Assembly: GCA_964453935.1 (NCBI GenBank)
Contig: CAYVPX010000017.1
Coordinates: 1 to 13,721 of the forward strand
Origin: an uncultured bacterium
Lineage (GTDB): Bacteria > AUK180
DNA length: 13,721 nt
Reading direction: 5' to 3'
The translations under genes and the position numbers were made by a program. Shown in pieces: positions 2,599 to 13,721 of the stretch (position 1 is its first letter; every line of letters begins with the position of its first letter). A model generated the notes under the pieces. It was not told the DNA's origin, made no database searches, and saw nothing but the letters and a program-made list of their open reading frames with translations.

Positions 2599-2626
2599 TT
2601 GAGAAAAATTATTAAAAAGTTATAAT
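2599..2626 (+). promoter_or_regulatory. Putative sigma70 promoter of the lipid-module operon: TTGAGA, 16-nt spacer, TATAAT
   Basis: TTGAGA at 2599-2604 and TATAAT at 2621-2626 form a near-consensus pair. It lies inside the IS remnant and points into the DedA gene. The predicted TSS is ~2633-2635, at the second in-frame ATG (2634). Confidence 0.3.
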
Positions 2627-3251
2627 GATATTTATGGCTTATTTAGTAGAAAATTTCCTTAACCATTTTCACACGCTTTATTTGTTTGGGATAATTTTAA
2701 TTTATCTATTTTTACCTTTTGGTTTGGCAATTTCAGAAGAGATTTTGACTATTATAATAGGTATTTTGGTGGGCAGGGGTTATGTCTCACCTTTTTCAGG
2801 AATTGTTGGCACTGTTTTAGGTGTTTATCTATCTGACATTATCTGTTATTTTATGGGAGTTTTAGTCGATAAATCATTAAAATTACCTATTTTGAGCAAA
2901 ATATATAAAAAAAAGGATAGAATCAGTATATATGATAAATTTCATAATAAATTCAAAGGCGCTTTTATTTTAATAATAAAATTTCTGGTAGGCCTTAAAT
3001 TCTGGATATATGTAGGTGCAGGATACAAAAAGTTCAATTTAAAAACATTTTTAATTGAAGATTTTTTTGCTGCTATAATTTTTAGTCTAATTTATTTAGT
3101 TATTGGTTTTTACTTTGGGTCCCATTTGAATGAAATTTTAGTATTTTTAAATAATTTTAAATACTTACTTATTGCTTTAGTTGTAATAGGGATCACAATA
3201 TTTATTTTAAGGAGAAAAAAACATGAGAAAGACACATCCCATTTATCTTGA
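2625..3251 (+). CDS. DedA/VTT-family (SNARE-associated) integral membrane protein
   Basis: The protein has multiple TM segments. DedA-like motifs include LFLPFGLAISEEILTIIIGILVG (F-x-P..E..L..G core) and a second re-entrant-like element KFKGAFILIIKFLVGLKFWIYVGAG (K/RF-x-P/G-x-R/K-x6-AG pattern). The annotated ATG 2625 sits inside the putative -10 box, so ATG 2634 (MAYLV...) may be the real start. The 3' end overlaps the next gene by 29 nt. Confidence 0.55.
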   Translation: MIFMAYLVENFLNHFHTLYLFGIILIYLFLPFGLAISEEILTIIIGILVGRGYVSPFSGIVGTVLGVYLSDIICYFMGVLVDKSLKLPILSKIYKKKDRISIYDKFHNKFKGAFILIIKFLVGLKFWIYVGAGYKKFNLKTFLIEDFFAAIIFSLIYLVIGFYFGSHLNEILVFLNNFKYLLIALVVIGITIFILRRKKHEKDTSHLS

Positions 3252-4326
3252 TAAAAATGAGAATTTATACGGTCCTTCACACCTCGTTTATGAGTTCGTG
3301 CTAAAAATTAATAAGGAAATTTTTTCCTATTATTCAAGAAATTCAATTAACAGAATTTCTGAAAGCATTTTAAAATATTTGAAATATGATGCCAATAAAA
3401 TTATAATTTCCTATGGTGGCGAAGACCTTTTATGGCAAATTACAAATTTTATCCATGGTGAAGGGGAAAAGAAGCTACTTATTGCAGATAATTCGTGGTG
3501 GTATTATAGAAAAATTGCTGAAAAGGTAGGACTGAAAATAAAAACTTATAAAACTGTAAAAAAGGGAGATTATTGGGAAAATGGTTATGAAAATTTACTG
3601 AAAACTTTGAAAACCTATGATGGGAAATATGTTTTACTATGTTCGCCAAATAATCCTACAGGCGAGAGGCTTTTGAAAAATGAACTTTCAGAAATATTAA
3701 AAACTCATGAGAATAAATTATTTGTACTTGATGAAGCATATTGGGGGTTTGACTTTGATGAGGATGGAAGAATTGAGGATTATAATGAATTTTTAGAGGA
3801 ACATCCAAACCTGATTATATTACGAACCTTTTCAAAATTTTTTGCACTGGCTGGTGTTCGCATTGGTTTTGCTCTTTACGGTAAAAAGTGGCAAAAATTT
3901 AATGATTCCAATTATCGTTATCTTGGATATAATAAATTTTCTGAAGAAATTGTTATGAGAACATTGAGATCTTGCAAATATTATCATAAAATTGCCAGAA
4001 GAATTATGAAAGATAGAGAAAAAACTTATAATTTACTTAAAAACTTTGATGCTTATACTCCATTTAGGACATATACAAATTTTATAATTGTTAAAATAAA
4101 TAATTTAAATTTGAAGGAAGATTTAAAAAAAGCACTCACTAAAAAAAATATTGTAATTAAATGGTTTTCAGATGATGATAAAAATATGAAAGATTTTGTC
4201 AGGATAACCATTGGCAAAACTACACAAATGAAAAAGCTATGGAAAATATTTTTAAAAACAGCATTAAAGTATGAAAAAGACAAAAAGAATATTCCAATTA
4301 TTTCAAAGATCATTGAAGGGGAATAA
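3223..4326 (+). CDS. PLP-dependent class-I/II aminotransferase fold enzyme of the HisC/CobD subfamily (histidinol-phosphate aminotransferase / threonine-phosphate decarboxylase-like)
   Basis: Motifs: DKNENLYGPS (HisC N-terminal NENPxGPS), CSPNNPTGERL (NPxNPTG), VLDEAYWGF (IDEAY), and ILRTFSKFFALAGVRIGFAL (RTFSKAxGLAGLRxGY with the PLP lysine). A good RBS AAGGAGA sits 7 nt upstream of ATG 3223. Sequence alone cannot separate transaminase from decarboxylase chemistry. Confidence 0.8.
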   Translation: MRKTHPIYLDKNENLYGPSHLVYEFVLKINKEIFSYYSRNSINRISESILKYLKYDANKIIISYGGEDLLWQITNFIHGEGEKKLLIADNSWWYYRKIAEKVGLKIKTYKTVKKGDYWENGYENLLKTLKTYDGKYVLLCSPNNPTGERLLKNELSEILKTHENKLFVLDEAYWGFDFDEDGRIEDYNEFLEEHPNLIILRTFSKFFALAGVRIGFALYGKKWQKFNDSNYRYLGYNKFSEEIVMRTLRSCKYYHKIARRIMKDREKTYNLLKNFDAYTPFRTYTNFIIVKINNLNLKEDLKKALTKKNIVIKWFSDDDKNMKDFVRITIGKTTQMKKLWKIFLKTALKYEKDKKNIPIISKIIEGE

Positions 4327-5089
4327 AGCTGAAGAGTTTTTTGATAAACTTTTTTTCCGCCCAATTTCTTTTATTGTTGCATATTCTTTTTATAAGTTAA
4401 ATATATCACCGAATATAGTTACAATTTTATCAGGGTTTTCTGCTTTATTGGCATTTTTCGGGTTTTATAAGAATCAATTAATTTTAGGGTTTATATTTTT
4501 CTTTTTATCTTATTTGTTTGATCTTGCCGATGGTCAGGTTGCTCGCCTTTCAAAAAAGAGTTCACCCCTTGGCCGTATATTGGATGGTTATGTGGATATC
4601 TTTTCCTATATATGTGTCGCTTTTGGATTATCTTTTTACTTATTCCACCAAAACCATACATATACAGGATTCATATTATTTACTATACTCGGAATCTCTC
4701 AATCACTACATACATTACTATTTGATGGATTGAGAAATGAATATTTATGCTTAACGAAAAATTTACAAAATTGTAGAGAATACATGTTAAAAATGGACAT
4801 TCAAGAAGAAAAAGCAAAAAAGATGGCAAATTGGTATAATAAATTACAATGCATGATATTTAAAAAAATTGTTTTATTAGAAAAATTAGATGATAAAAAA
4901 CGTGATTTTTATATTTTATTCAACTCTTTTTTAGGAAGTGGAACTAAATATTTTTTCCTTTTTTTAGGCATTATTTTTCATAAAATTACGATTACCTTAT
5001 GGTTTTTAATCATTATTACCAATATTATTTTTATTATCTCTTATTTATGGGGAGCACATTATGAGAATAATTATACTGGCAGCAGGTAG
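4271..5089 (+). CDS. CDP-alcohol phosphatidyltransferase family integral membrane enzyme
   Basis: The signature D-G-x2-A-R-x8-G-x3-D-x3-D is present as FDLADGQVARLSKKSSPLGRILDGYVDIFSY. An N-terminal PNxxT element (ISPNIVTILSG) and several TM helices are also present. The only available start is ATG 4271, which overlaps the upstream gene by 56 nt. Confidence 0.8.
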   Translation: MKKTKRIFQLFQRSLKGNKAEEFFDKLFFRPISFIVAYSFYKLNISPNIVTILSGFSALLAFFGFYKNQLILGFIFFFLSYLFDLADGQVARLSKKSSPLGRILDGYVDIFSYICVAFGLSFYLFHQNHTYTGFILFTILGISQSLHTLLFDGLRNEYLCLTKNLQNCREYMLKMDIQEEKAKKMANWYNKLQCMIFKKIVLLEKLDDKKRDFYILFNSFLGSGTKYFFLFLGIIFHKITITLWFLIIITNIIFIISYLWGAHYENNYTGSR

Positions 5090-5777
5090 AGGACGAAGGC
5101 TTTCTCCTTTAACTGATACTACACATAAAACGCTTTTAAAAATTGGTGAAAAAACAATTTTGGAGCATACAATTGATAATTTTAAATTTTATAAAATACA
5201 TGATTTTCAATTTGTACTCGGTTATAGAGCAAATGATATCATTGATTTCCTGGATAAAAAGGGTATAAATTATTCATATGTAATAAATGATATCTGGGAT
5301 AAAACCAACAATATATATTCGCTATATCTTGCATTAAAAGAAGGTGATTCAGAAGATATTATTTTAATTGACAGTGATATCTTTTTTTCATATAAAATAT
5401 TGGAATCACTGTTTAGGCAAAAAGAAACTGCTTTTTTAGTCAGAAAAGGAAAATTAACAGAAGAGGATATGAAGGTTGTCATAAAAGATAATAGAATATT
5501 AAAAATATCAAAAGAAATACCTCTAAAAGAAGCAAGTGGTGAATCAATAGGTATTGAATATTTTACTAAAAAAGATTATGCTCTTCTTAAAAGTGAATTA
5601 GGGGATGTGATTGAAAATGAAACAAATGGAAAAAATCTTTTTTATGAGTATGCTTTTCAACGATTAATAGATAAAAAACTCATATCTCCCTATTCAATAA
5701 TCATAAATGATTTTGCCTGTGAAATAGACACGAGAGAAGACCTTGATTTTGCAAAAAATATTTTAAAAAAAAATTAA
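5061..5777 (+). CDS. LicC-family nucleotidyltransferase (CTP:phospho-alcohol cytidylyltransferase-like)
   Basis: N-terminal NTP-binding loop MRIIILAAGRGRRLSPLT. The sequence aligns well to S. pneumoniae LicC through the family-specific blocks FVLGY, TNNIYSLYLA (LicC YNNFYSLYL) and C-terminal EIDTREDL (LicC EIDSVQDY). RBS GGGGAG lies 6 nt upstream of the ATG. The start overlaps the upstream gene by 29 nt. Confidence 0.85.
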   Translation: MRIIILAAGRGRRLSPLTDTTHKTLLKIGEKTILEHTIDNFKFYKIHDFQFVLGYRANDIIDFLDKKGINYSYVINDIWDKTNNIYSLYLALKEGDSEDIILIDSDIFFSYKILESLFRQKETAFLVRKGKLTEEDMKVVIKDNRILKISKEIPLKEASGESIGIEYFTKKDYALLKSELGDVIENETNGKNLFYEYAFQRLIDKKLISPYSIIINDFACEIDTREDLDFAKNILKKN

Positions 5778-5910: not shown

Positions 5911-6555
5911 ATGTTAGACAAAGAGAAAATAGACCAATTGGTAGAAAAAGTTAAGAATGAATTTCCAAAGGGAATGTCACAAAATAATAATAAATTAATT
6001 ACTTTAGAGGTATCGGCTCACCATTTACATATTTCAAGGGAACATCTTGATATACTTTTCGGCAAGGGTTATGAACTTACATCTATTAAAGCTCTCTCTC
6101 AACCCGGACAGTATGCTGCAAAAGAAACAGTACGGATCGTGGGACCCAATGGCGAATACGATAATGTAAGAATATTGGGACCAGTAAGAAGTGAAACACA
6201 GGTTGAGATTGCAATGACCGATTGTTTCATTATTGGTATTGAACCGGTTATTAGAATGTCAGGTGATATTAATGGAACACCTGGTTGCATTATTTGGGGA
6301 CCAAAAGGGCATCTTGAATTAAAAAAAGGGGTCATTGTCGCAAAAAGACACTTTCACTGCACCCCGCAAACGGCAGAGAACCTTGGTTTAAAGAACAATG
6401 ATGTTGTTTCCGCTGAAATAAGCGGAGAACGAGGCGGTATATTGAGAAACATAATTGTTAGGGTTAGTGATAAATATGCAGATGCCATTCACCTTGATAC
6501 AGATGAAGGCAATGGTCTTGGTGTCAAGACCGGTGATCGTGCATATATTAAATAA
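5911..6555 (+). CDS. pduL: PduL-type phosphotransacylase (phosphate acetyl/propanoyltransferase) with N-terminal encapsulation-peptide-like helix
   Basis: The protein is colinear with Salmonella PduL across the conserved blocks: HHLHIS / HVHL-like, [69 protein letters not shown]. It has the two-repeat PduL architecture. The N-terminus [18 protein letters not shown] is a predicted amphipathic helix. Confidence 0.9.
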
Positions 6556-6569
6556 AATCGGAGGTAGAT

Positions 6570-6854
6570 ATGGAAGCATTAGGTATGATTGAAACAAAAA
6601 GTTTGGTTGCATGTATTGAAGCTGCAGATGCAATGGTAAAAGCAGCAAAGGTACAGCTTGTTGCTTATGAAAAAACTGGCGGCGGTTATGTAACAGCTTT
6701 GGTAAGAGGCGATGTAGCGGCTTGTAAAGCAGCAACAGATGCAGGTGCCGCAGCAGCACAAAGAGTTGGCGAATTGGTAAGTGTTCATGTAATTCCAAGA
6801 CCTCATCAGAATCTTGACGGAATTTTCCCTATCAAAGCTAAAAGCAACAAATAG
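6570..6854 (+). CDS. BMC-H hexameric shell protein (PduA/EutM/CcmK family, Pfam PF00936-type)
   Basis: [79 protein letters not shown] is near-identical in pattern to PduA ([52 protein letters not shown]). RBS GGAGGT is upstream. Confidence 0.95.
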
Positions 6855-6893
6855 AGGAAGTGGGATCTTTTTCCCACCACATAAGGACTTATT

Positions 6894-7163
6894 ATGTTAA
6901 TTGGAAAAGTTATCGGTAGAGTTGTTGCTACAAGGAAGGAAGAAAAACTTCATGGAGCAAAATTATTGGTGGTTCAGCCGGTTGGTCTTAATATGAAACC
7001 GCAGGGAGCACCCATTGTTTGCATTGATTCTGTAGATGCAGGATTCAAGGAAACCGTTCTCATTGTTCAGGGTTCTTCCGCTCGTTTGGTAACAAATCAA
7101 GGAAATAACCCTGTCGACGCTGCAATAGTTGGAATCATTGATTCCATTAAAATTGACGATTAG
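6894..7163 (+). CDS. BMC-P pentameric vertex protein (EutN/CcmL/PduN family), paralog 1
   Basis: 89 aa. N-terminal GKVIGRVVAT, then KLLVVQPV and D-x-VDAG-x-x-ETVLIVQGSSAR, as in EutN/PduN. Confidence 0.9.
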   Translation: MLIGKVIGRVVATRKEEKLHGAKLLVVQPVGLNMKPQGAPIVCIDSVDAGFKETVLIVQGSSARLVTNQGNNPVDAAIVGIIDSIKIDD

Positions 7164-7171
7164 GGAGAGAG

Positions 7172-8602
7172 ATGATGGATAAAAATGAGATTGAGAAATT
7201 GGTAAGAAAGGTCGTAGATGAATTCGTTAAGGAGGGCGTAGCAATTTCAAATTCGCAAAATGCTATTTCATCAAAAGAAGGAATATTTTCAAATATTGAT
7301 GATGCTATTACGGCAGCAAGAATAGCACAGAAGGACATTGAAAAACTTCCCCTTGATATAAGAAGCAAAATCGTTGACAATATGAAAAAGGTGGCACTTG
7401 AAAATGCCGATATGCTTGGAGAAATGGCTGTTGAGGAAACTGGAATGGGCAGAATGCCGGATAAAGCGGACAAGGTAAGGTTAGTTGCTAATAAAACACC
7501 TGGGGTTGAAGATGTAAAACCCATGGTCTATACGGGTGATCACGGAATGGTACTTGAAGAAAGAGCACCTTACGGGGTCATAGGAAGTCTTACACCTTCC
7601 ACCAATCCCCCATCTACGATTGTAAATAATGGGATCAGTGCCATTGCCGGTGGTAATGCCATTGTTTTTAATCCGCATCCGGCGGCAAAGAATGTTTCAA
7701 ACAAGACCGTTCAATTAATGCATCGTGCAATTATTGATGCAGGGGGACCAAAAAACCTTATCTGCAGTATTGAAACGCCTTCACAAGAAAGTAGTGAAAA
7801 GTTAATGAAACATCCGTATCTTAATCTACTCTTGGCAACAGGCGGGGAGTTCATGGTACATCTTGCAATGAATTCGGGAAAAAAGACCATTGTAGGAGGT
7901 CCGGGAAATCCGCCCTGTCTTGTTGATGAAACGGCGGACATATCCAAAGCCGCAAAGGATATCGTCATCTCTTCATCATTTGATAATAATGTGGTTTGCG
8001 TCCTTGAGAAGGAGGTCTTTGTCGTAGAATCCGTTGCAGATCAACTTATCTCTGAGATGAAAAAACACAATGTTTATGAAATAAAGGGTGACGATATAAA
8101 AAGGGTTACAGATCTTTTAATTGCAAAAGATGAGGGCACGGGTTACAGGGTTCCAACTATTAATAAAAAATATGTTGGAAAAGACCCATATATTATTCTT
8201 AAAGATGCGGGTATCACTATTCCTCAGAATACACGGCTTGCCATTATGCAGGTTAATTGGGACCATCCCATGGTGCAGGTTGAGCAACTTTTACCCGTAC
8301 TGCCCATTGTAAGGGTAAAGGACTGGGAAGATGGAGCCATGCATTCTCTTGAAACGGAACATCATTACAGGCACACCTTTATAATGCATTCAACAAATAT
8401 TGATAGATTATCATATATGGCAAGAGAATGTGATGCATCTATCTTTGTAAAGAATGGTATGTCCCTGCAAGGTCTCGGATATATGGGCGAAGGACCTACA
8501 ACAATGACCATCGCTACTCCGACAGGAGACGGTATAACAACAGCAATGACCTTTACAAGACGCAGACGCTGTGCATTAATAGATAGGTTCAGGATAGTAT
8601 AA
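7172..8602 (+). CDS. CoA-acylating aldehyde dehydrogenase (EutE/PduP family) with N-terminal encapsulation-peptide-like helix
   Basis: The EutE/PduP-type catalytic region FDNNVVCVLEKEVFVVE contains the active-site Cys, and the characteristic C-terminus TFTRRRRCALIDRFRIV is present. The N-terminus MMDKNEIEKLVRKVVDEF closely resembles the PduL N-terminus. RBS GGGAGAGAG is upstream. Confidence 0.9.
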   Translation: MMDKNEIEKLVRKVVDEFVKEGVAISNSQNAISSKEGIFSNIDDAITAARIAQKDIEKLPLDIRSKIVDNMKKVALENADMLGEMAVEETGMGRMPDKADKVRLVANKTPGVEDVKPMVYTGDHGMVLEERAPYGVIGSLTPSTNPPSTIVNNGISAIAGGNAIVFNPHPAAKNVSNKTVQLMHRAIIDAGGPKNLICSIETPSQESSEKLMKHPYLNLLLATGGEFMVHLAMNSGKKTIVGGPGNPPCLVDETADISKAAKDIVISSSFDNNVVCVLEKEVFVVESVADQLISEMKKHNVYEIKGDDIKRVTDLLIAKDEGTGYRVPTINKKYVGKDPYIILKDAGITIPQNTRLAIMQVNWDHPMVQVEQLLPVLPIVRVKDWEDGAMHSLETEHHYRHTFIMHSTNIDRLSYMARECDASIFVKNGMSLQGLGYMGEGPTTMTIATPTGDGITTAMTFTRRRRCALIDRFRIV

Positions 8603-8610
8603 AGAGTACA

Positions 8611-9927
8611 ATGCAATTAAATGATATTCAAAAAGCAGGGATTATTGGGTGTGGCGGCGCAGGTTTTCCCACATTCTTCAAACTTAAAAGTGAGGTTGAA
8701 ACACTCATCATAAACGGTGCAGAATGTGAACCGCTTCTGGAAACAGACAAAGAAATATTAAGGAACCATTTGGATATGGTTATTGAGGGGATTAAGACAG
8801 CAAAAGAACTTATAAAAGCGAAAGAGGTTTTTTTGGGTGTTAAGGAATACTATAAAGATCTTATTGAATATCTTAAAGAGAATGAAGAGGGATTCAAGGT
8901 ATTTCCCCTTGAGAATATCTACCCCATTGGTGATGAACAGCTTCTTGTTAAGGCTATAACAGGGAAAATAATCCCCGAAGCAGGGCTACCTCTTGATGTT
9001 GGAGTGGTGGTTCAAAATGTTGAAACAATCTATCATTTGGGAAGATTAAAAAAAGAAAACGAGAATTTTACTCATAGATTCGTTACTGTTAACGGCGAGG
9101 TTGAATTCCCATTTGTTGCGTATGTGCCCATTGGAACACCTGTTTCAGAATTATTAAATATTGCGAAACCCAAGATCCTATTAACGGATGCCAAGATAAT
9201 TGACGGCGGACCCATGATGGGTAAATTTATTACAGAGGAAGATTTTATAAAAAAAACAACCTCGGGTATCCTGGTAATTCCCAAGGAGCATAAATTGATC
9301 AGACAAAGGACACGGGATATTGACACCATAAAAAAGATATCAAGATCTGCCTGTATTCAGTGCAGAAGATGTACGGATTTTTGTCCGAGATATTTGAACG
9401 GTCACAGAATCGAGCCGCATAAGTGGATGAGAAATCTTGCTCTTGGAGAGGTACTTCCCAATGAAATGGCAAATATTTGTAGCGAGTGCGGTGTTTGCGA
9501 ACTTGTAGCATGTCCCATGGATATTTCCCCTAGATTGGTGGCACAAATAATGAAAAAACAGATGGCAGATAATGGTATGAAAAATGAGCATTATCACAAT
9601 AAGCCGGAGAAAAGCCGCGATTTTGCTGAATTAAGGAAGGTCAATACATTGAAATTAATGGAACACCTTGATATTGATCAATACAATGTTCATCCACACC
9701 TTGAGAAATTTACCATTGAGCCGGAAACAGTAAGAATATATTTGAACCAGCATATTGGAAAACCGGCAGAATCCAATGTAAAGATCAATGATAAAGTGAA
9801 AATAGGTGATGTTATAGGAAAATGCAAAGAAGGTGAGCTTTCCGTTTATTACCATGCCTCTATCTCAGGTAAGGTGGTATCTGTTGAAAATAATTATATT
9901 GATATAATAAATGAAAAAAATAGTTGA
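8611..9927 (+). CDS. PduS-like RnfC/NuoF-family flavoprotein with two [4Fe-4S] ferredoxin motifs
   Basis: The N-terminus AGIIGCGGAGFPTFFKL...INGAECEPLL matches the PduS/RnfC NADH-binding signature (GxGGAGFP, AECEP). Two CxxCxxCxxxCP motifs are present: CIQCRRCTDFCP and CSECGVCELVACP. The length of 438 aa is similar to PduS. Confidence 0.85.
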   Translation: MQLNDIQKAGIIGCGGAGFPTFFKLKSEVETLIINGAECEPLLETDKEILRNHLDMVIEGIKTAKELIKAKEVFLGVKEYYKDLIEYLKENEEGFKVFPLENIYPIGDEQLLVKAITGKIIPEAGLPLDVGVVVQNVETIYHLGRLKKENENFTHRFVTVNGEVEFPFVAYVPIGTPVSELLNIAKPKILLTDAKIIDGGPMMGKFITEEDFIKKTTSGILVIPKEHKLIRQRTRDIDTIKKISRSACIQCRRCTDFCPRYLNGHRIEPHKWMRNLALGEVLPNEMANICSECGVCELVACPMDISPRLVAQIMKKQMADNGMKNEHYHNKPEKSRDFAELRKVNTLKLMEHLDIDQYNVHPHLEKFTIEPETVRIYLNQHIGKPAESNVKINDKVKIGDVIGKCKEGELSVYYHASISGKVVSVENNYIDIINEKNS

Positions 9928-9938
9928 GGTAAGTAGTT

Positions 9939-10499
9939 ATGACTTTTAGAAATGCCATTGCCCTTGTTGAATTTAACAGTATTGCACATGGGATCGCCTT
10001 TGCAGATGAGATGGTAAAGGGCGGCAATGTTAAGCTTCTTGACAATTATCCCACATGTCCGGGGAAACATATTGTCATTGTTTCCGGAGATACTGACGCA
10101 GTAAAACAAGCGGTAAAAAATGGATTTACGGTAGGGAAGGATTTCGTTCTTGAGTACTCCATCATCCCAAATGTCCATGAAGATGTGTTAAAAGGAGCAA
10201 TGGGGATCCCATCTGTTTCATTGAATGATATAGATGCCATTGGTATCGTTGAGAGCTTTTCAATAATAAAATGTGTAGAGGCTGCAGATATGGCTTTGAA
10301 GGAATCTCAGGTAAAATTAGTGGACATGCGGCTGGGAAAAGCACTTGGTGGAAAAGCATACTTTATTCTCACCGGAGCGGTTGGAGCAGTAAAAAGCAGT
10401 GTAATGGCAGCAGTGGAATTCTTGAAGGAAAATACAAATTTGGTACAGTTCAAGATCATACCTGCTCCGGCAGATGAACTAAAAAAAAGTCTTTTATGA
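9939..10499 (+). CDS. BMC-T tandem-BMC-domain shell protein, PduT-like, with the conserved pore Fe-S cysteine
   Basis: 186 aa with two BMC domains (ALVEFNSIAHGIAFADEMVKGGNVKLL... and IGIVESFSIIKCVEAADMALKESQVKLVDMRL...). The N-terminal half aligns to Salmonella PduT, including the TICPGK motif, seen here as YPTCPGKH. Cys40 (nt 10056-10058) corresponds to the [4Fe-4S] ligand of PduT. RBS GAGGTAAG is upstream. Confidence 0.85.
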   Translation: MTFRNAIALVEFNSIAHGIAFADEMVKGGNVKLLDNYPTCPGKHIVIVSGDTDAVKQAVKNGFTVGKDFVLEYSIIPNVHEDVLKGAMGIPSVSLNDIDAIGIVESFSIIKCVEAADMALKESQVKLVDMRLGKALGGKAYFILTGAVGAVKSSVMAAVEFLKENTNLVQFKIIPAPADELKKSLL

Positions 10500-10509
10500 G
10501 AGGTAAAAA

Positions 10510-11124
10510 ATGAGAATTGCAATAGGAAGTGATCACGGTGGATTTGAATTAAAAAGAAAATTGGTCCCATTTATTGAATCCTTGGGGCATGAGGTCAGTG
10601 ATCTTGGAACATACACACCCGATTCTGTGGATTATCCCGACATTGCTGCAATTGTTGCATATGAAGTCGCAAAGGGTAATTATCCTTTTGGTATACTTAT
10701 CGATGGAGCCGGTATTGGCTCTGCCATTGCTGCAAATAAAATAAAAGGTATTCGTGCAGCCACGGTGAACAATATTTTCATGGCACAAACCGCAAGGGAG
10801 CACAACAATTCAAATATACTGGTTTTGGGAGCAGGACAAACAGGTGAAAATCTAATAAAAGATATTATCAAAATTTTTTTAAGTACACCATTTGCAGGTG
10901 GGAGACATGAAAGAAGAGTTAATAAAATCAGTAAATTAGAAGAAGCAAATCTTAAAGAGATTGAGAAATATACCAGTCCACCTAAAAAATTGATAACAGC
11001 CGACGATATTCGTTCGGCAAGTAGAAATGGCGAAAACATTCTTTATTACGTGAAGGGTGCCATTATAACTGAATTGGCTAAAGAAACTGCATTTGATCTT
11101 GGAGTGAGGATCGTAGAAAGATAA
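10510..11124 (+). CDS. RpiB/LacAB-family sugar-phosphate isomerase (ribose-5-phosphate isomerase B-like) fused to a ~60-aa C-terminal extension
   Basis: Residues 1-~140 align end-to-end with E. coli RpiB (IAIGSDHGGF, DYPD, GILIDGAGIGSAIAANKIKGIRA, REHNNSNILVLGA, GGRHERRV). The position of E. coli catalytic Cys66 is Asp65 here (GAT 10702-10704). Residues ~141-204 (SKLEEANLKEIEKYTSPPKKLITADDIRSASRNGENILYYVKGAIITELAKETAFDLGVRIVER) are extra relative to canonical ~150-aa RpiB. The stop overlaps the next start (TAATG). Confidence 0.85.
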   Translation: MRIAIGSDHGGFELKRKLVPFIESLGHEVSDLGTYTPDSVDYPDIAAIVAYEVAKGNYPFGILIDGAGIGSAIAANKIKGIRAATVNNIFMAQTAREHNNSNILVLGAGQTGENLIKDIIKIFLSTPFAGGRHERRVNKISKLEEANLKEIEKYTSPPKKLITADDIRSASRNGENILYYVKGAIITELAKETAFDLGVRIVER

Positions 11125-11390
11125 TGTTCTTGGCAAAAGTAATTGGCAAGGTTGTTCTATCACATTCCGAAGAGCAGATGCCTAAGTATAAACTTTTAAT
11201 TATTCAACCCATTAATGAGAAAGGAGAAAATACTGATGTTCCTCAAATCTCAATGGATATTGTGGGTGCCGGACCCGGGGAAACGGTGCTCGTTACCATC
11301 GGAGATGAGTCAATGCTCGGTTTTTTACCTGAACAACCGCCTGGGGATCTTTGCATTATAGGCATTGTTGATGACATAGGATTGGAATAA
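11124..11390 (+). CDS. BMC-P pentameric vertex protein, paralog 2
   Basis: 88 aa. AKVIGKVVLS...KLLIIQPI...DIVGAGPGETVLVTIGDES has the EutN/CcmL fold signature. It is TAATG-coupled to its flanking genes. Confidence 0.85.
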   Translation: MFLAKVIGKVVLSHSEEQMPKYKLLIIQPINEKGENTDVPQISMDIVGAGPGETVLVTIGDESMLGFLPEQPPGDLCIIGIVDDIGLE

Positions 11391-11668
11391 TGTATATTGG
11401 CAAGGTCATAGGTTCTGTTACCGTCTCCAAAGGAGAACCCGGACTAAAAGGCAAGAAACTCATAATCATAATGTTCCTTGATGCTAATGGCAAGGAAACG
11501 GGTAAGTACAATATTGCTGTAGATAAAATGGGTGCCGGATTTCATGAAACCGTATTATTGGTAAAGGGTAAAGAAGGAGTTGACATGCTTACAGGTTATA
11601 AACCGCCGGCAGACCTTACTATTTGCGGTATTATTGATCTTATAAATCATCCGAAAGATGGGAAATAA
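11390..11668 (+). CDS. BMC-P pentameric vertex protein, paralog 3
   Basis: 92 aa. GKVIGSVTVS...KKLIIIMFLD...DKMGAGFHETVLLVKGKEG. It is divergent from paralogs 1 and 2 but shares the pattern. Confidence 0.8.
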   Translation: MYIGKVIGSVTVSKGEPGLKGKKLIIIMFLDANGKETGKYNIAVDKMGAGFHETVLLVKGKEGVDMLTGYKPPADLTICGIIDLINHPKDGK

Positions 11669-11671
11669 ATT

Positions 11672-12322
11672 ATGGATTTAGGTTTTTTTATTTTTTTGAC
11701 AATTTTTGTTCTTATAACAGCAATTATTTTTATTGCAAGGAAGGGAGGGTTCAAAACAACCGAGAAAATTAAAGAGTTGTGGAAAGCAAACGGAATGGAT
11801 ATTCGCTTACTCGAACAAAAATTTCTGGGTATCTCCAAAAAGAAAGTAATTGCAATAAAAAGAGAACAAAAGTACTTAATAGTGGGAATGAACTGGGTGG
11901 TTAGTTCAGGAAGGAATCAAATACCATATTGGGGTATCGGTATCTTTACACATAGCGAGGTCATGAAATTTTCAATAACAAGGAGAAGACCTACTTTTTT
12001 AGATGGGAAGAGGATCAAATTAAATGATCCCGAACTTGATAAGATGCTCGTTTTAAAATGCAAGGATGAGGACTGGTTCAGAATGTACTTTAACGAAGGA
12101 GTGTTAATGGAATTTGCTCATACCATTCCCAAAAATACAATAATATCCTATGAAAAGAAATCACCTGTGAATATAAATAGTATTTTAGAGGAATTGGCAT
12201 ATGATCCCTACGAGCCCTTTATTATGGTAAAAAGAAGAGAGATCGCAGCATACTCTAAGGTATTTAATGAAACAATCGGTGTTGCTGAAAAACTCGCAAA
12301 AATATTTTTACATATTAGATAA
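11672..12322 (+). CDS. Hypothetical N-terminally membrane-anchored protein, tightly coupled to the BMC operon
   Basis: 216 aa. One N-terminal TM helix (LGFFIFLTIFVLITAIIFIA) is followed by a ~190-aa soluble domain with no motif I recognise. It starts 4 nt after the BMC-P3 stop. Its AT-rich codon use matches the flanks. Confidence 0.6.
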   Translation: MDLGFFIFLTIFVLITAIIFIARKGGFKTTEKIKELWKANGMDIRLLEQKFLGISKKKVIAIKREQKYLIVGMNWVVSSGRNQIPYWGIGIFTHSEVMKFSITRRRPTFLDGKRIKLNDPELDKMLVLKCKDEDWFRMYFNEGVLMEFAHTIPKNTIISYEKKSPVNINSILEELAYDPYEPFIMVKRREIAAYSKVFNETIGVAEKLAKIFLHIR

Positions 12323-12538
12323 GGTCCATTAGTCAATAATTGAAATAAATACTAAATGCTTAATAAAAAGGAGATAATATCACTGAATTACAGATATTCA
12401 GGGGATAAGGAACAAACAATTCATGAAATGTGATAAGGAGAAAAACTTATGGATACTATAATACAAACTTTATTCTCAAATGTAAATAGGCTTTTCTGAA
12501 AAAAGAATCAACTAAAATGGGGATGAGCAATAATTAGT

Positions 12539-13721
12539 TTATCTCGTTACTATTTTAAAAAATATCAGATTATTGGATGAAAATAAAGTTTTTGAGCTAT
12601 ATTGAAAATTATGATTTTTACGATTTCTGTAATGATAGTTTAAATATTTTTCTAAAATCGATATAAGTTTTTTCCCTATATCTGAGTTTTGTGTAACTAT
12701 TACAATATCCTTTCTGGTAATATTTTTCATTAAGTCTCTTCCTGAACTAAACCTATAATTTTTTAAAGTTTTATAATAAAATTCAGATCGTATTGTCCAA
12801 CCTATTGGTATAATTTTATATTTTTCAAAATTTTGGTATTCATGTAAAGGGCTAGCACCCTTTAATTGTTGCCACAAAGGGGCAATAGATAGAAATATTT
12901 TATCCGGGCCATAAATAGAATTAAATTTTCTAACTGAACTTTGAGCCATTTGGAATTGATTACTTGACCGAACATTTAAATTTTTTAAATTAATAAATCT
13001 TTTAATGCTTATTGGTAGCATTAAAATAATAAGAATAAGAAATATAAATTTTTCAATTTTAATATTTTCATACTTTGTAATTTTAAATGAAAAAATAATT
13101 AATCCCAAAACTAGAACATATAAAGGGTAGTTAATTCTTGTTCGAGATCTGATCATTATAATAAGGAAAATACCAATGAGGAGATAAATAAAATATGAAA
13201 TAAAAAAAATAATGATCCTTTTATTTATTTTTATTTTCCAAGACCTGATGATATTATATAGAAAAATTAAAATTGCAAATATACAAGGGAAAATAATATA
13301 TAAATAATTTCTCAAACTAACAATTGTTTTTTTTATTTCGCCCCACCAAATAAATTTTAAAAGAGGAGTTTGCCCTTTTGAATTTATTTCAAGGAAATTT
13401 TTAAATTTTTCAATGGAAAAAATTGTTTCATCATGTAAAAAAGAATACATTCCTAAAATATAATCTTCCTTAATCCAATTAACTGATGATAGTGCCATGG
13501 GGGTATTTTTATTAAAACCACCTCCAAAAAAATCGTAAAATTTTACTCTAGCATTATTATATTTTATAAATTTTGAATCTCTAAATTGTCCATTGATATT
13601 TGAAACAACAATTATTGTAATTAACAATACTCCAAAAATGATAAAAAATCGTTTCCAATTTTTAAATATAAAAAAGGTTAAACATATCGGTAATATATAT
13701 ATAGAAAAATATAATATTAAT
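12539..13721 (-). CDS. Polytopic integral membrane protein of unknown function (5' end outside window; the annotated start at 13627 is an internal TTG)
   Basis: The minus-strand frame stays open from stop 12539 to the window edge (…LILYFSIYILPICLTFFIFKNWKRFFIIFGVLLITII…). The codon at 13625-13627 is TTG, and hydrophobic segments continue upstream, so the gene is probably truncated by the window. There are at least 6 TM segments and a C-terminal soluble region. No family recognised. Confidence 0.5.
   Translation of the reverse strand, partial: LILYFSIYILPICLTFFIFKNWKRFFIIFGVLLITIIVVSNINGQFRDSKFIKYNNARVKFYDFFGGGFNKNTPMALSSVNWIKEDYILGMYSFLHDETIFSIEKFKNFLEINSKGQTPLLKFIWWGEIKKTIVSLRNYLYIIFPCIFAILIFLYNIIRSWKIKINKRIIIFFISYFIYLLIGIFLIIMIRSRTRINYPLYVLVLGLIIFSFKITKYENIKIEKFIFLILIILMLPISIKRFINLKNLNVRSSNQFQMAQSSVRKFNSIYGPDKIFLSIAPLWQQLKGASPLHEYQNFEKYKIIPIGWTIRSEFYYKTLKNYRFSSGRDLMKNITRKDIVIVTQNSDIGKKLISILEKYLNYHYRNRKNHNFQYSSKTLFSSNNLIFFKIVTR

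Follow-up and report, generated by a model that had tools for sequence, protein, structure and literature searches.

A microcompartment operon assigned to the SPU lineage that lacks a linked deoxyribose-phosphate aldolase gene

Introduction

Microcompartments of the sugar-phosphate-utilising (SPU) type are bacterial microcompartments (BMCs) defined by a deoxyribose-phosphate aldolase (DERA; PF01791), an enzyme that is found in all seven subtypes of the family (PMC8217296; PMC11585597). This work deals with a metabolosome operon at positions 5911-11668 of the contig CAYVPX010000017.1, which by its gene order, its phylogenetic trees and one of its proteins belongs to the SPU lineage and in which no DERA is encoded. 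The whole metagenomic contig, 13,721 bp in length, was analysed and is called the window in the following. An earlier note, made from the letters of this DNA alone, had seen the affinity to SPU loci, which is upheld here; it had also taken the RpiB isomerase as the protein that defines the class, a role given in the literature to DERA (PMC11585597).

The statement of that note that the shell and cargo of SPU compartments lack biochemical characterisation is outdated. DERA and the ribose-5-phosphate isomerase-like protein (RPI) of subtype SPU6 were purified and assayed in 2024: both proteins form a 1:1 complex, a Cys-to-Asp exchange is present in all SPU RPIs, the SPU6 orthologue has negligible ribose-5-phosphate isomerase activity, and a packaging role has been proposed for this inactive protein (Dwyer et al. 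2024, PMC11585597). In the same year, the module formed by the NADH dehydrogenase of metabolosomes (MNdh) together with the shell protein BMC-T^SE was experimentally characterised. It regenerates NAD+ inside the shell and exports the electrons, it is typical of loci without alcohol dehydrogenase, and MNdh adjoins BMC-T in 97% of MNdh loci (Sutter et al. 2024, PMC11626177). The PduS/PduT pair, for which a B12-related function had been supposed, is now understood as this electron-export module. SPU-type shells from archaea were assembled in 2025 (Du et al. 2025 preprint, PMC12747264).

Comparison with the closest described loci

The closest described systems are the SPU1/SPU7-like loci, which contain a PduL-type phosphotransacylase (PTAC) and no BMC-T^dp (PMC8217296, PMC11585597). 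Among the loci fetched for comparison (designated L001 and so on), L009-L012 share exactly the gene order of the window: PduL, BMC-H, BMC-P, aldehyde dehydrogenase (AldDH), MNdh, BMC-T, RpiB and BMC-P. The N-terminal encapsulation peptides on AldDH and PTAC, the BMC-P triplet and the absence of BMC-T^dp are also common to the window and this group. In L009-L012 the series is followed by a long DERA composed of an encapsulation helix, a flavoprotein-like domain, a Cys motif and a DeoC domain; these loci also encode a triose-phosphate isomerase (TPI) and a 240-aa protein that carries a small module described below, and L011 includes an acetate kinase. The window differs from SPU1/SPU7-like loci in the absence of DERA, TPI, the DUF240 protein and acetate kinase, and in the position of the targeting-like module, which is fused to the C-terminus of RpiB instead of being N-terminal or on separate proteins. 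Besides, most members of the window's clade have only two BMC-P genes rather than a triplet.

The type I archaeal microcompartments (AMC) of Hodarchaeales (Du et al. 2025 preprint, PMC12747264; for example L011) have a nearly identical core order and the same pair of MNdh and BMC-T with a CPGK motif. They possess several additional elements, none of which is present in the window: a flavoprotein-DERA fusion, a DUF protein, a second BMC-H, a Lys/Arg-rich DNA-binding tail on BMC-P2, and acetate kinase or citrate synthase. Related to this, L011 (CP070760.1, Heimdallarchaeota) and L012 (JASLWR01, Thermoplasmatota) are complete SPU loci in metagenome-assembled genomes labelled as archaea; their consideration as new loci was rejected, because they have already been published as archaeal microcompartments (PMC12747264). 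BMC-P proteins with a lysine-rich disordered tail were observed in the bacterial L010 (10880-11407) and in the archaeal L011 (10450-10926), and no such tail is found on the BMC-P proteins of the window. The archaeal tail is reported to bind DNA (PMC12747264).

Two other systems resemble the window in having no DERA at the main locus. The 'SPU-like' locus of Latescibacteria (Axen et al. 2014, PMC4207490) encodes AldDH, PduL, PduS and an RpiB-like protein, without DeoC, as in the window. It differs in having a class II aldolase, the presumed signature enzyme, and an acetate kinase; neither PF00596 nor PF00871 was found in the window or in the loci of its clade. On the other hand, the main locus of the Haliangium ochraceum (HO) BMC shows no obvious signature enzyme and contains a BMC-P triplet, again as in the window. 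However, it includes BMC-T^dp and a BMC-T without pore cysteine, and has no MNdh pair, whereas the BMC-T of the window has the CPGK motif and is accompanied by MNdh. In HO-BMC genomes, PF01791 enzymes bearing encapsulation peptides are encoded at distant sites (PMC8217296).

A clade of SPU loci without DERA

The order from PduL to BMC-P without DERA is found in the window and in six related lineages, whose RpiB proteins are 99% (L088), 90% (L087), 76% (L002), 70% (L089/L090), 69% (L001) and 59% (L007, labelled Candidatus Mcinerneyibacteriota) identical to that of the window. Exact look-ups with the AldDH and the RpiB of the window itself matched no record. A profile HMM for DERA detected nothing in the approximately 119 kb of DNA from the window and these lineages, and no match was obtained in the same DNA when phmmer was used to look for class II aldolase, TPI, acetate kinase, DUF240 and the flavoprotein domain. 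As a positive control, the DERA search recovered 29 DERA open reading frames (ORFs) across the full set of loci.

The same architecture, with flanks of 10 kb, is present on contigs of 20-235 kb. Inspection of the flanks for the missing enzymes, which had been proposed earlier, was carried out in the relatives, and no DERA lies within 10 kb of the operon. The flanks of the clade, up to 10 kb, have no EutBC, diol dehydratase or glycyl-radical enzyme, and they differ in every lineage. Since six lineages share the DERA-less operon in unrelated contexts, the absence of DERA is not an artefact of the contig end. The genes placed 3' of the operon in the relatives (a 267-aa protein of no known function, YmdB, a CLC channel and alaS) were considered as the missing enzyme and rejected, as they are mutually unrelated.

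Outside the clade, DERA occurs in 22 of the 25 loci in which an Asp-type RpiB is linked to shell genes. The exceptions correspond to a dispersed arrangement (L003/L004) and to a two-gene satellite (L008). In L003 (2315-10696), the MNdh-BMC-T pair and a module-bearing RpiB are 6 kb apart among unrelated genes, and in L008 (9660-10459) the satellite consists of a BMC-H and an Asp-type RpiB, both without DERA.

Neighbour-joining trees, constructed without bootstrap for AldDH and RpiB, place the DERA-less loci as one clade set among DERA-containing SPU loci other than SPU6. This clustering in both trees fits with a single ancestral event, in which DERA was lost or moved elsewhere. Taken together, gene order, trees and the SPU-specific Cys-to-Asp exchange in RpiB assign the operon to the SPU lineage, nearest to the PTAC-containing subtypes without BMC-T^dp. 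A comparison of the window with L087 gave dN/dS values of 0.04-0.08 for AldDH, MNdh, BMC-T, RpiB (0.05) and two BMC-P proteins. The corresponding dS values of 1.4-2.8 are near saturation, yet the ratios point clearly in one direction and indicate that the reduced operon is maintained and not decaying.

Some peculiarities of individual relatives were also observed. In L002 (8840-9378), MNdh and BMC-T are separated by the insertion of an Avd/23S-rRNA-intervening-sequence-like gene plus two tiny ORFs, and an IS200-type Y1 transposase lies directly 5' of PduL in L089 and L090 (4419-5267, - strand).

The RpiB-like protein and its module

The RpiB-like protein (10510-11124, + strand; 204 aa; PF02502, 1.4e-52) is made up of an RpiB core (residues 1-145), a flexible linker (146-158) and a C-terminal module (159-203, nucleotides 10984-11118). 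Alignment with the structure of Clostridium thermocellum RpiB (3HE8) places Asp65 at the position of the catalytic Cys. This Asp is invariant among 20 aligned homologues, and the remaining active-site residues D8, H9, H98, R132, H133 and R136 also show no variation. In the first 86 loci fetched, the two types of RpiB are found in clearly different contexts: shell genes or DERA accompany the Asp-type in 34 of 36 cases, and neither accompanies the Cys-type in 39 of 40. The earlier note had regarded RpiB as the only additional catalytic enzyme of the operon; it is indeed the sole extra enzyme gene, but its catalysis is doubtful given the Asp variant and the negligible activity of the SPU6 orthologue.

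The whole protein was predicted by AlphaFold2 with a pLDDT of 90, and the module with values of 85-93, the confidence being high both in the full protein and for the module alone. The predicted fold of the module is a mini-domain of about 45 residues with a beta-alpha-beta-beta-alpha-beta arrangement. It matches weakly the N-terminus of EutQ (NCBIfam), and a Foldseek comparison with the PDB returned no match with E <= 0.001. The same module is N-terminal on most other SPU RPIs, and the extension of published SPU RPIs, described as an encapsulation element, is likewise N-terminal, in contrast with the C-terminal position in the window. It is also carried by TPI, by the protein of about 240 aa and by small stand-alone proteins of canonical SPU loci. 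In relatives with longer linkers, a classic encapsulation-type helix is located between RpiB and the module, of which only a remnant is left in the window's clade. Considering that an SPU-specific Asp variant is joined to a module common to other SPU cargo, the RpiB-like protein is probably a cargo or organising component of the compartment.

The module itself is a mobile element. It was observed N- or C-terminally on RpiB, on TPI, on the ~240-aa protein, on a 141-aa protein with an encapsulation helix and on metagenome ORFs or fragments of 45-80 aa, with sites at L010 10449-10874, L011 5166-5888, L012 1330-2067, L014 603-1331, L054 2631-3317 and L010 3971-5032. When a profile of the module was used to look for further cargo genes in trans, nothing beyond ORFs or fragments of 34-81 aa was recovered.

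Operon organisation, enzymatic core and shell

The locus is confirmed by profile searches as a genuine and intact BMC metabolosome operon. Nine ORFs on the + strand follow each other with intergenic gaps of -1 to 39 nt, including a TAATG stop/start overlap at two junctions and Shine-Dalgarno-like motifs before most starts. The compact, co-directional organisation and all nine family assignments proposed in the earlier note (PduL, AldDH, RpiB, PduS/PduT, one BMC-H, one BMC-T and three BMC-P) hold, the latter with Pfam and NCBIfam profiles at E-values of 1e-21 to 1e-185. Profile annotation of the window also bears out the absences described there: no B12 dehydratase, ethanolamine lyase (EutBC), glycyl-radical enzyme, aldolase, alcohol dehydrogenase, acetate kinase or regulator is found among the annotated ORFs. 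By contrast, the term 'complete-looking' does not stand, as the signature step is missing, with no DERA in the window or in the 10-kb flanks of the relatives.

The first gene encodes PduL (5911-6555, + strand; 214 aa; PF06130, 1.9e-73; NF011652, 250 bits), which aligns to the structure of Rhodopseudomonas palustris PduL (5CUO) from residue 31 only. Residues 5-18 constitute an N-terminal amphipathic helix, conserved in the clade, whose hydrophobic moment is at the 99.5th percentile within the protein. The CoA-acylating AldDH (7172-8602, + strand; 476 aa; NF011927, 1.1e-184) has its best solved relatives in the BMC aldehyde dehydrogenases 4C3S and 5JFL (about 396 bits), with the core aligned from residue 35. 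The catalytic Cys276 is kept and the NVVCVLE motif is present. Its residues 5-18, NEIEKLVRKVVDEF, also form an N-terminal amphipathic helix (hydrophobic moment at the 99.8th percentile) that is conserved in relatives. In these properties both helices agree with encapsulation peptides, and they stand outside the solved cores, so that AldDH and PduL are predicted to be lumenal.

The PduS homologue MNdh (8611-9927, + strand; 438 aa; Complex1_51K, 1.1e-40, Fer4_17 and RnfC_N) contains the nucleotide-binding (FMN/NADH) motif GCGGAGFPT and two 4Fe-4S motifs, at C248 and C290. Its gene is separated by 11 nt from that of the PduT-like tandem-domain protein BMC-T^SE (9939-10499, + strand; 186 aa; two BMC domains, 1.6e-39). 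The pore Cys40 of this protein lies in a CPGK motif, which is kept in the alignment to the PduT structures 3N79 and 3PAC and to 3NWG. With its adjacent genes, the CP(G/S)K pore motif, the FMN/NADH and two 4Fe-4S motifs and no alcohol dehydrogenase, the pair is a standard member of the module of Sutter et al. (PMC11626177), without any notable difference.

The shell set is composed of one BMC-H, one tandem BMC-T and three BMC-P proteins, clustered within 5.8 kb and similar to the shell proteins of SPU loci. BMC-H (6570-6854, + strand; 94 aa; PF00936, 4.6e-30; EutM-like NF012018, 153 bits) is 91% identical to those of L001 and L002. The pentamer (vertex) proteins are BMC-P 1 (6894-7163, + strand; 89 aa; PF03319, 3.8e-30), BMC-P 2 (11124-11390, + strand; 88 aa; PF03319, 2.9e-21), whose start overlaps the stop codon of RpiB in a TAATG, and BMC-P 3 (11390-11668, + strand; 92 aa; PF03319, 3.5e-22). 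Since they are mutually only 36-40% identical, they are old paralogues. BMC-P 3 shares 71-91% identity with the BMC-P located 3' of RpiB in relatives. BMC-P 2 is present in the window and in L088 and absent from L087, L001, L002 and L089, most other members of the clade having two BMC-P proteins versus the three of the window.

Neighbouring genes and genomic context

The operon is immediately followed by ORF216 (11672-12322, + strand), whose product is an orphan without any family match and has a hydrophobic helix at its N-terminus. The ORF starts 3 nt past the stop of BMC-P 3, has a GC content at third codon positions (GC3) of 0.33, like the operon, and is kept at the same position in L088 and L087. 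Only four homologues were found among 5.8e9 proteins; apart from the window, the family includes L091 4313-4960, and the homologue in the genome of L002 is located on a separate contig from the operon, beside a V-ATPase gene. As a candidate for the missing enzyme, ORF216 was discarded on account of the lack of a family match, the hydrophobic helix, the four homologues and the absence of linkage in the L002 genome. Its membership of the system is doubtful, and it is not counted as a component.

The remaining ORFs of the window code for a Ser/Thr kinase, a DedA/UptA-like protein, a HisC/CobD-like pyridoxal phosphate (PLP) enzyme, a CDP-alcohol phosphatidyltransferase, a nucleotidyltransferase and two proteins of no known function, and there is no aldehyde-generating candidate among them. 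The kinase (33-2228, - strand) has five PEGA domains. Four overlapping genes (2625-5777, + strand) encode the DedA/UptA-like membrane protein, the PLP enzyme, the phosphatidyltransferase, which is inositol-phosphate-synthase-like, and the nucleotidyltransferase, which is IPCT-like; together they resemble a pathway for a CDP-alcohol head group or a compatible solute. The cluster was examined as a possible component of the BMC and rejected, because it is not kept beside the operon in relatives. At the other end of the window, a 362-aa multi-pass membrane protein with no family match is encoded at 12539-13627 (- strand) in a gene of 23% GC.

Regarding transcription and RNA signals, Rfam gave no matches at E <= 1 across the entire window, and the promoter scan was at chance level (26 sites observed, 26.7 expected). 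Terminator-like sites were above chance (12 observed, 4.5 expected); the sole + strand site 3' of the operon is at 12520-12545, past ORF216, which is weak evidence. The operon and ORF216 have about 39% GC and a GC3 of about 0.31, and the flanking genes 23-31% GC and a GC3 of 0.15-0.24. The GC3 of the operon is thus higher than that of its flanks and equal to the value of about 0.31 found throughout the genomes of relatives, which hints at an acquisition of the operon by a host of lower GC content.

In L089 and L090, a secreted Endonuclease_1 with a Por/T9SS sorting tail is encoded at 12247-13605 (+ strand), about 400 bp past the 267-aa ORF that trails the operon and about 1.2 kb past the last BMC-P. 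Its presence fits with scavenging of extracellular nucleic acid.

Proposed function and source of the aldehyde

According to the gene content, BMC-H, the PduT-like BMC-T and the three BMC-P proteins would build a shell in whose lumen AldDH would use CoA and NAD+ to turn a short aldehyde into acyl-CoA, with formation of NADH. PduL would then recycle CoA by converting acyl-CoA into acyl-phosphate. MNdh, docked on BMC-T, would re-oxidise NADH, and the electrons would leave through an Fe-S cluster in the pore of BMC-T, an export that would stand in for the missing alcohol dehydrogenase. The aldehyde would be supplied by a signature enzyme whose gene lies at another place in the genome. Most likely this is a DERA with an encapsulation tag that associates with the RpiB-like protein, as it occurs in SPU6; the substrate would be in this case deoxyribose 5-phosphate and the aldehyde acetaldehyde.

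The reading that we favour, with somewhat better than even confidence, is therefore that of a reduced, SPU-descended compartment core whose signature enzyme, probably DERA, is encoded at another site. A tagged DERA in trans is the most likely source by analogy with SPU6 and the HO BMC: the partner RPI of DERA has been retained under strong selection, RPI and DERA of SPU6 form a 1:1 complex, and HO-BMC genomes carry tagged PF01791 enzymes at distant sites. The secreted endonuclease adjacent to the operon in L089 agrees with it, as part of nucleic-acid scavenging. Several points weigh on the other side. Neither DERA nor class II aldolase, TPI or acetate kinase appears in the ~119 kb of clade DNA, so that the enzyme in trans is purely inferred, and every dataset consists of metagenome assemblies. 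The accessories that accompany DERA (TPI, DUF240, the flavoprotein domain and acetate kinase) are likewise all absent, a pattern that resembles the loss of a whole functional module more than the relocation of one gene. Moreover, the invariant residues of the RpiB active site suggest a role beyond that of a scaffold.

The loss of every DERA-associated accessory also suits a second explanation, which we regard as possible and give a modest probability. The compartment may be an aldehyde sink, whose shell takes up acetaldehyde or another small aldehyde from the cytosol and converts it into acyl-phosphate with export of electrons, and the RpiB-like protein would survive only as a scaffold for packing or nucleation. 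The aldehyde could arise from an ordinary DeoC, from the oxidation of ethanol or from threonine aldolase. In agreement with this, the conserved unit is exactly PduL through BMC-P, with nothing conserved 3' in any lineage, and the packaging role proposed by Dwyer et al. for the inactive SPU6 RPI would correspond to such a scaffold. Nevertheless, a shell would be of little benefit against a toxic aldehyde produced outside it, and the invariance of the catalytic-site residues of RpiB together with its dN/dS exceeds what a scaffold needs.

It is rather doubtful that all aldolases have been lost and that the Asp-type RpiB either defines the substrate or acts as a sensor or gate for sugar phosphates in a compartment that oxidises aldehyde of a different origin. 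Taken on its own, the substrate-defining variant of this idea seems unlikely. It supposes that the Asp65 variant isomerises a ketose phosphate into an aldose phosphate whose aldehyde group is free, such as a tetrose or triose phosphate, which AldDH and PduL would oxidise, the system being an aldolase-independent sugar-phosphate metabolosome. In its favour, the reduced operon has retained RpiB as its only enzyme outside the housekeeping set; the residues of RpiB that bind phosphate and open the ring do not vary, with a carboxylate at the position of the catalytic base, RpiB and AldDH are under equally strong selection, and enzymes of the RpiB/LacAB group are known to be promiscuous. However, no activity is known for the variant, and its SPU6 orthologue is inactive on ribose 5-phosphate. 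Furthermore, the BMC aldehyde dehydrogenases of the branch to which AldDH belongs (4C3S, 5JFL) act on small uncharged aldehydes, and RpiB co-occurs with DERA in every other SPU lineage.

Equally unlikely is a different signature enzyme in trans, by which the organelle would not be one for deoxyribose phosphate. The aldehyde would come from a satellite module at another site of the genome, for example EutABC with EutL or a class II aldolase as in 'SPU-like' loci. There are precedents: satellite 'EUT modules' have been described for HO, SPU3 and SPU6 BMCs, as well as a replacement of the signature enzyme for SPU6/EUT3 (PMC8217296), and the SPU-like loci of Axen et al. pair AldDH, PduL, PduS and RpiB with a class II aldolase. 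On the contrary, no such module is found within 10 kb in the six lineages, the operon has no BMC-T of the EutL type, and the retention of an RpiB that is the partner of DERA would be unexplained.

A decaying remnant, or an assembly artefact in which a short contig hides DERA, is very improbable and largely refuted: the window is indeed a metagenomic contig of 13.7 kb with only about 2 kb left 3' of the operon, but the genes are full-length with intact motifs, their dN/dS is 0.04-0.08 and the same architecture is repeated on the 20-235 kb contigs of relatives. Finally, that this is an ordinary propanediol (PDU), ethanolamine (EUT) or glycyl-radical enzyme (GRM) locus with its signature enzyme just beyond the window is hardly credible and already refuted, since the NCBIfam scores that rank BMC-H as EutM-like, BMC-T as PduT-like and PduL as PDU/EUT-like are opposed by the SPU-specific Asp-type RpiB, by synteny and trees that point to SPU loci, and by 10-kb flanks of relatives (L001, L002, L089 and L090) without EutBC, PduCDE diol dehydratase or glycyl-radical enzyme.

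Concluding remarks

The SPU family, the MNdh module and the archaeal SPU loci were already known; what is new is a DERA-less clade of the SPU lineage. SPU compartments are among the most widespread types of microcompartment and are now implicated in Asgard archaea too. With eight or nine genes, the operon is one of the smallest natural operons in which a shell is joined with a core for aldehyde oxidation and a module for electron export, so that a use in engineering is possible.

The main point is that the enigmatic RPI has been separated from DERA in nature: a clade that keeps the RPI-like protein under strong selection after DERA left the operon constitutes a natural experiment. If a tagged DERA is encoded in trans, this would support the recruitment of DERA by the RPI-like protein, and it would mean that classification based on loci overlooks split SPU systems. 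If the genomes of the clade have no DERA at all, the published definition of the family and the function proposed for RPI would need revision. Should the aldolase-independent reading be true, the RPI of all SPU compartments would have a function independent of DERA, and DERA would lose its status as universal signature of the lineage.

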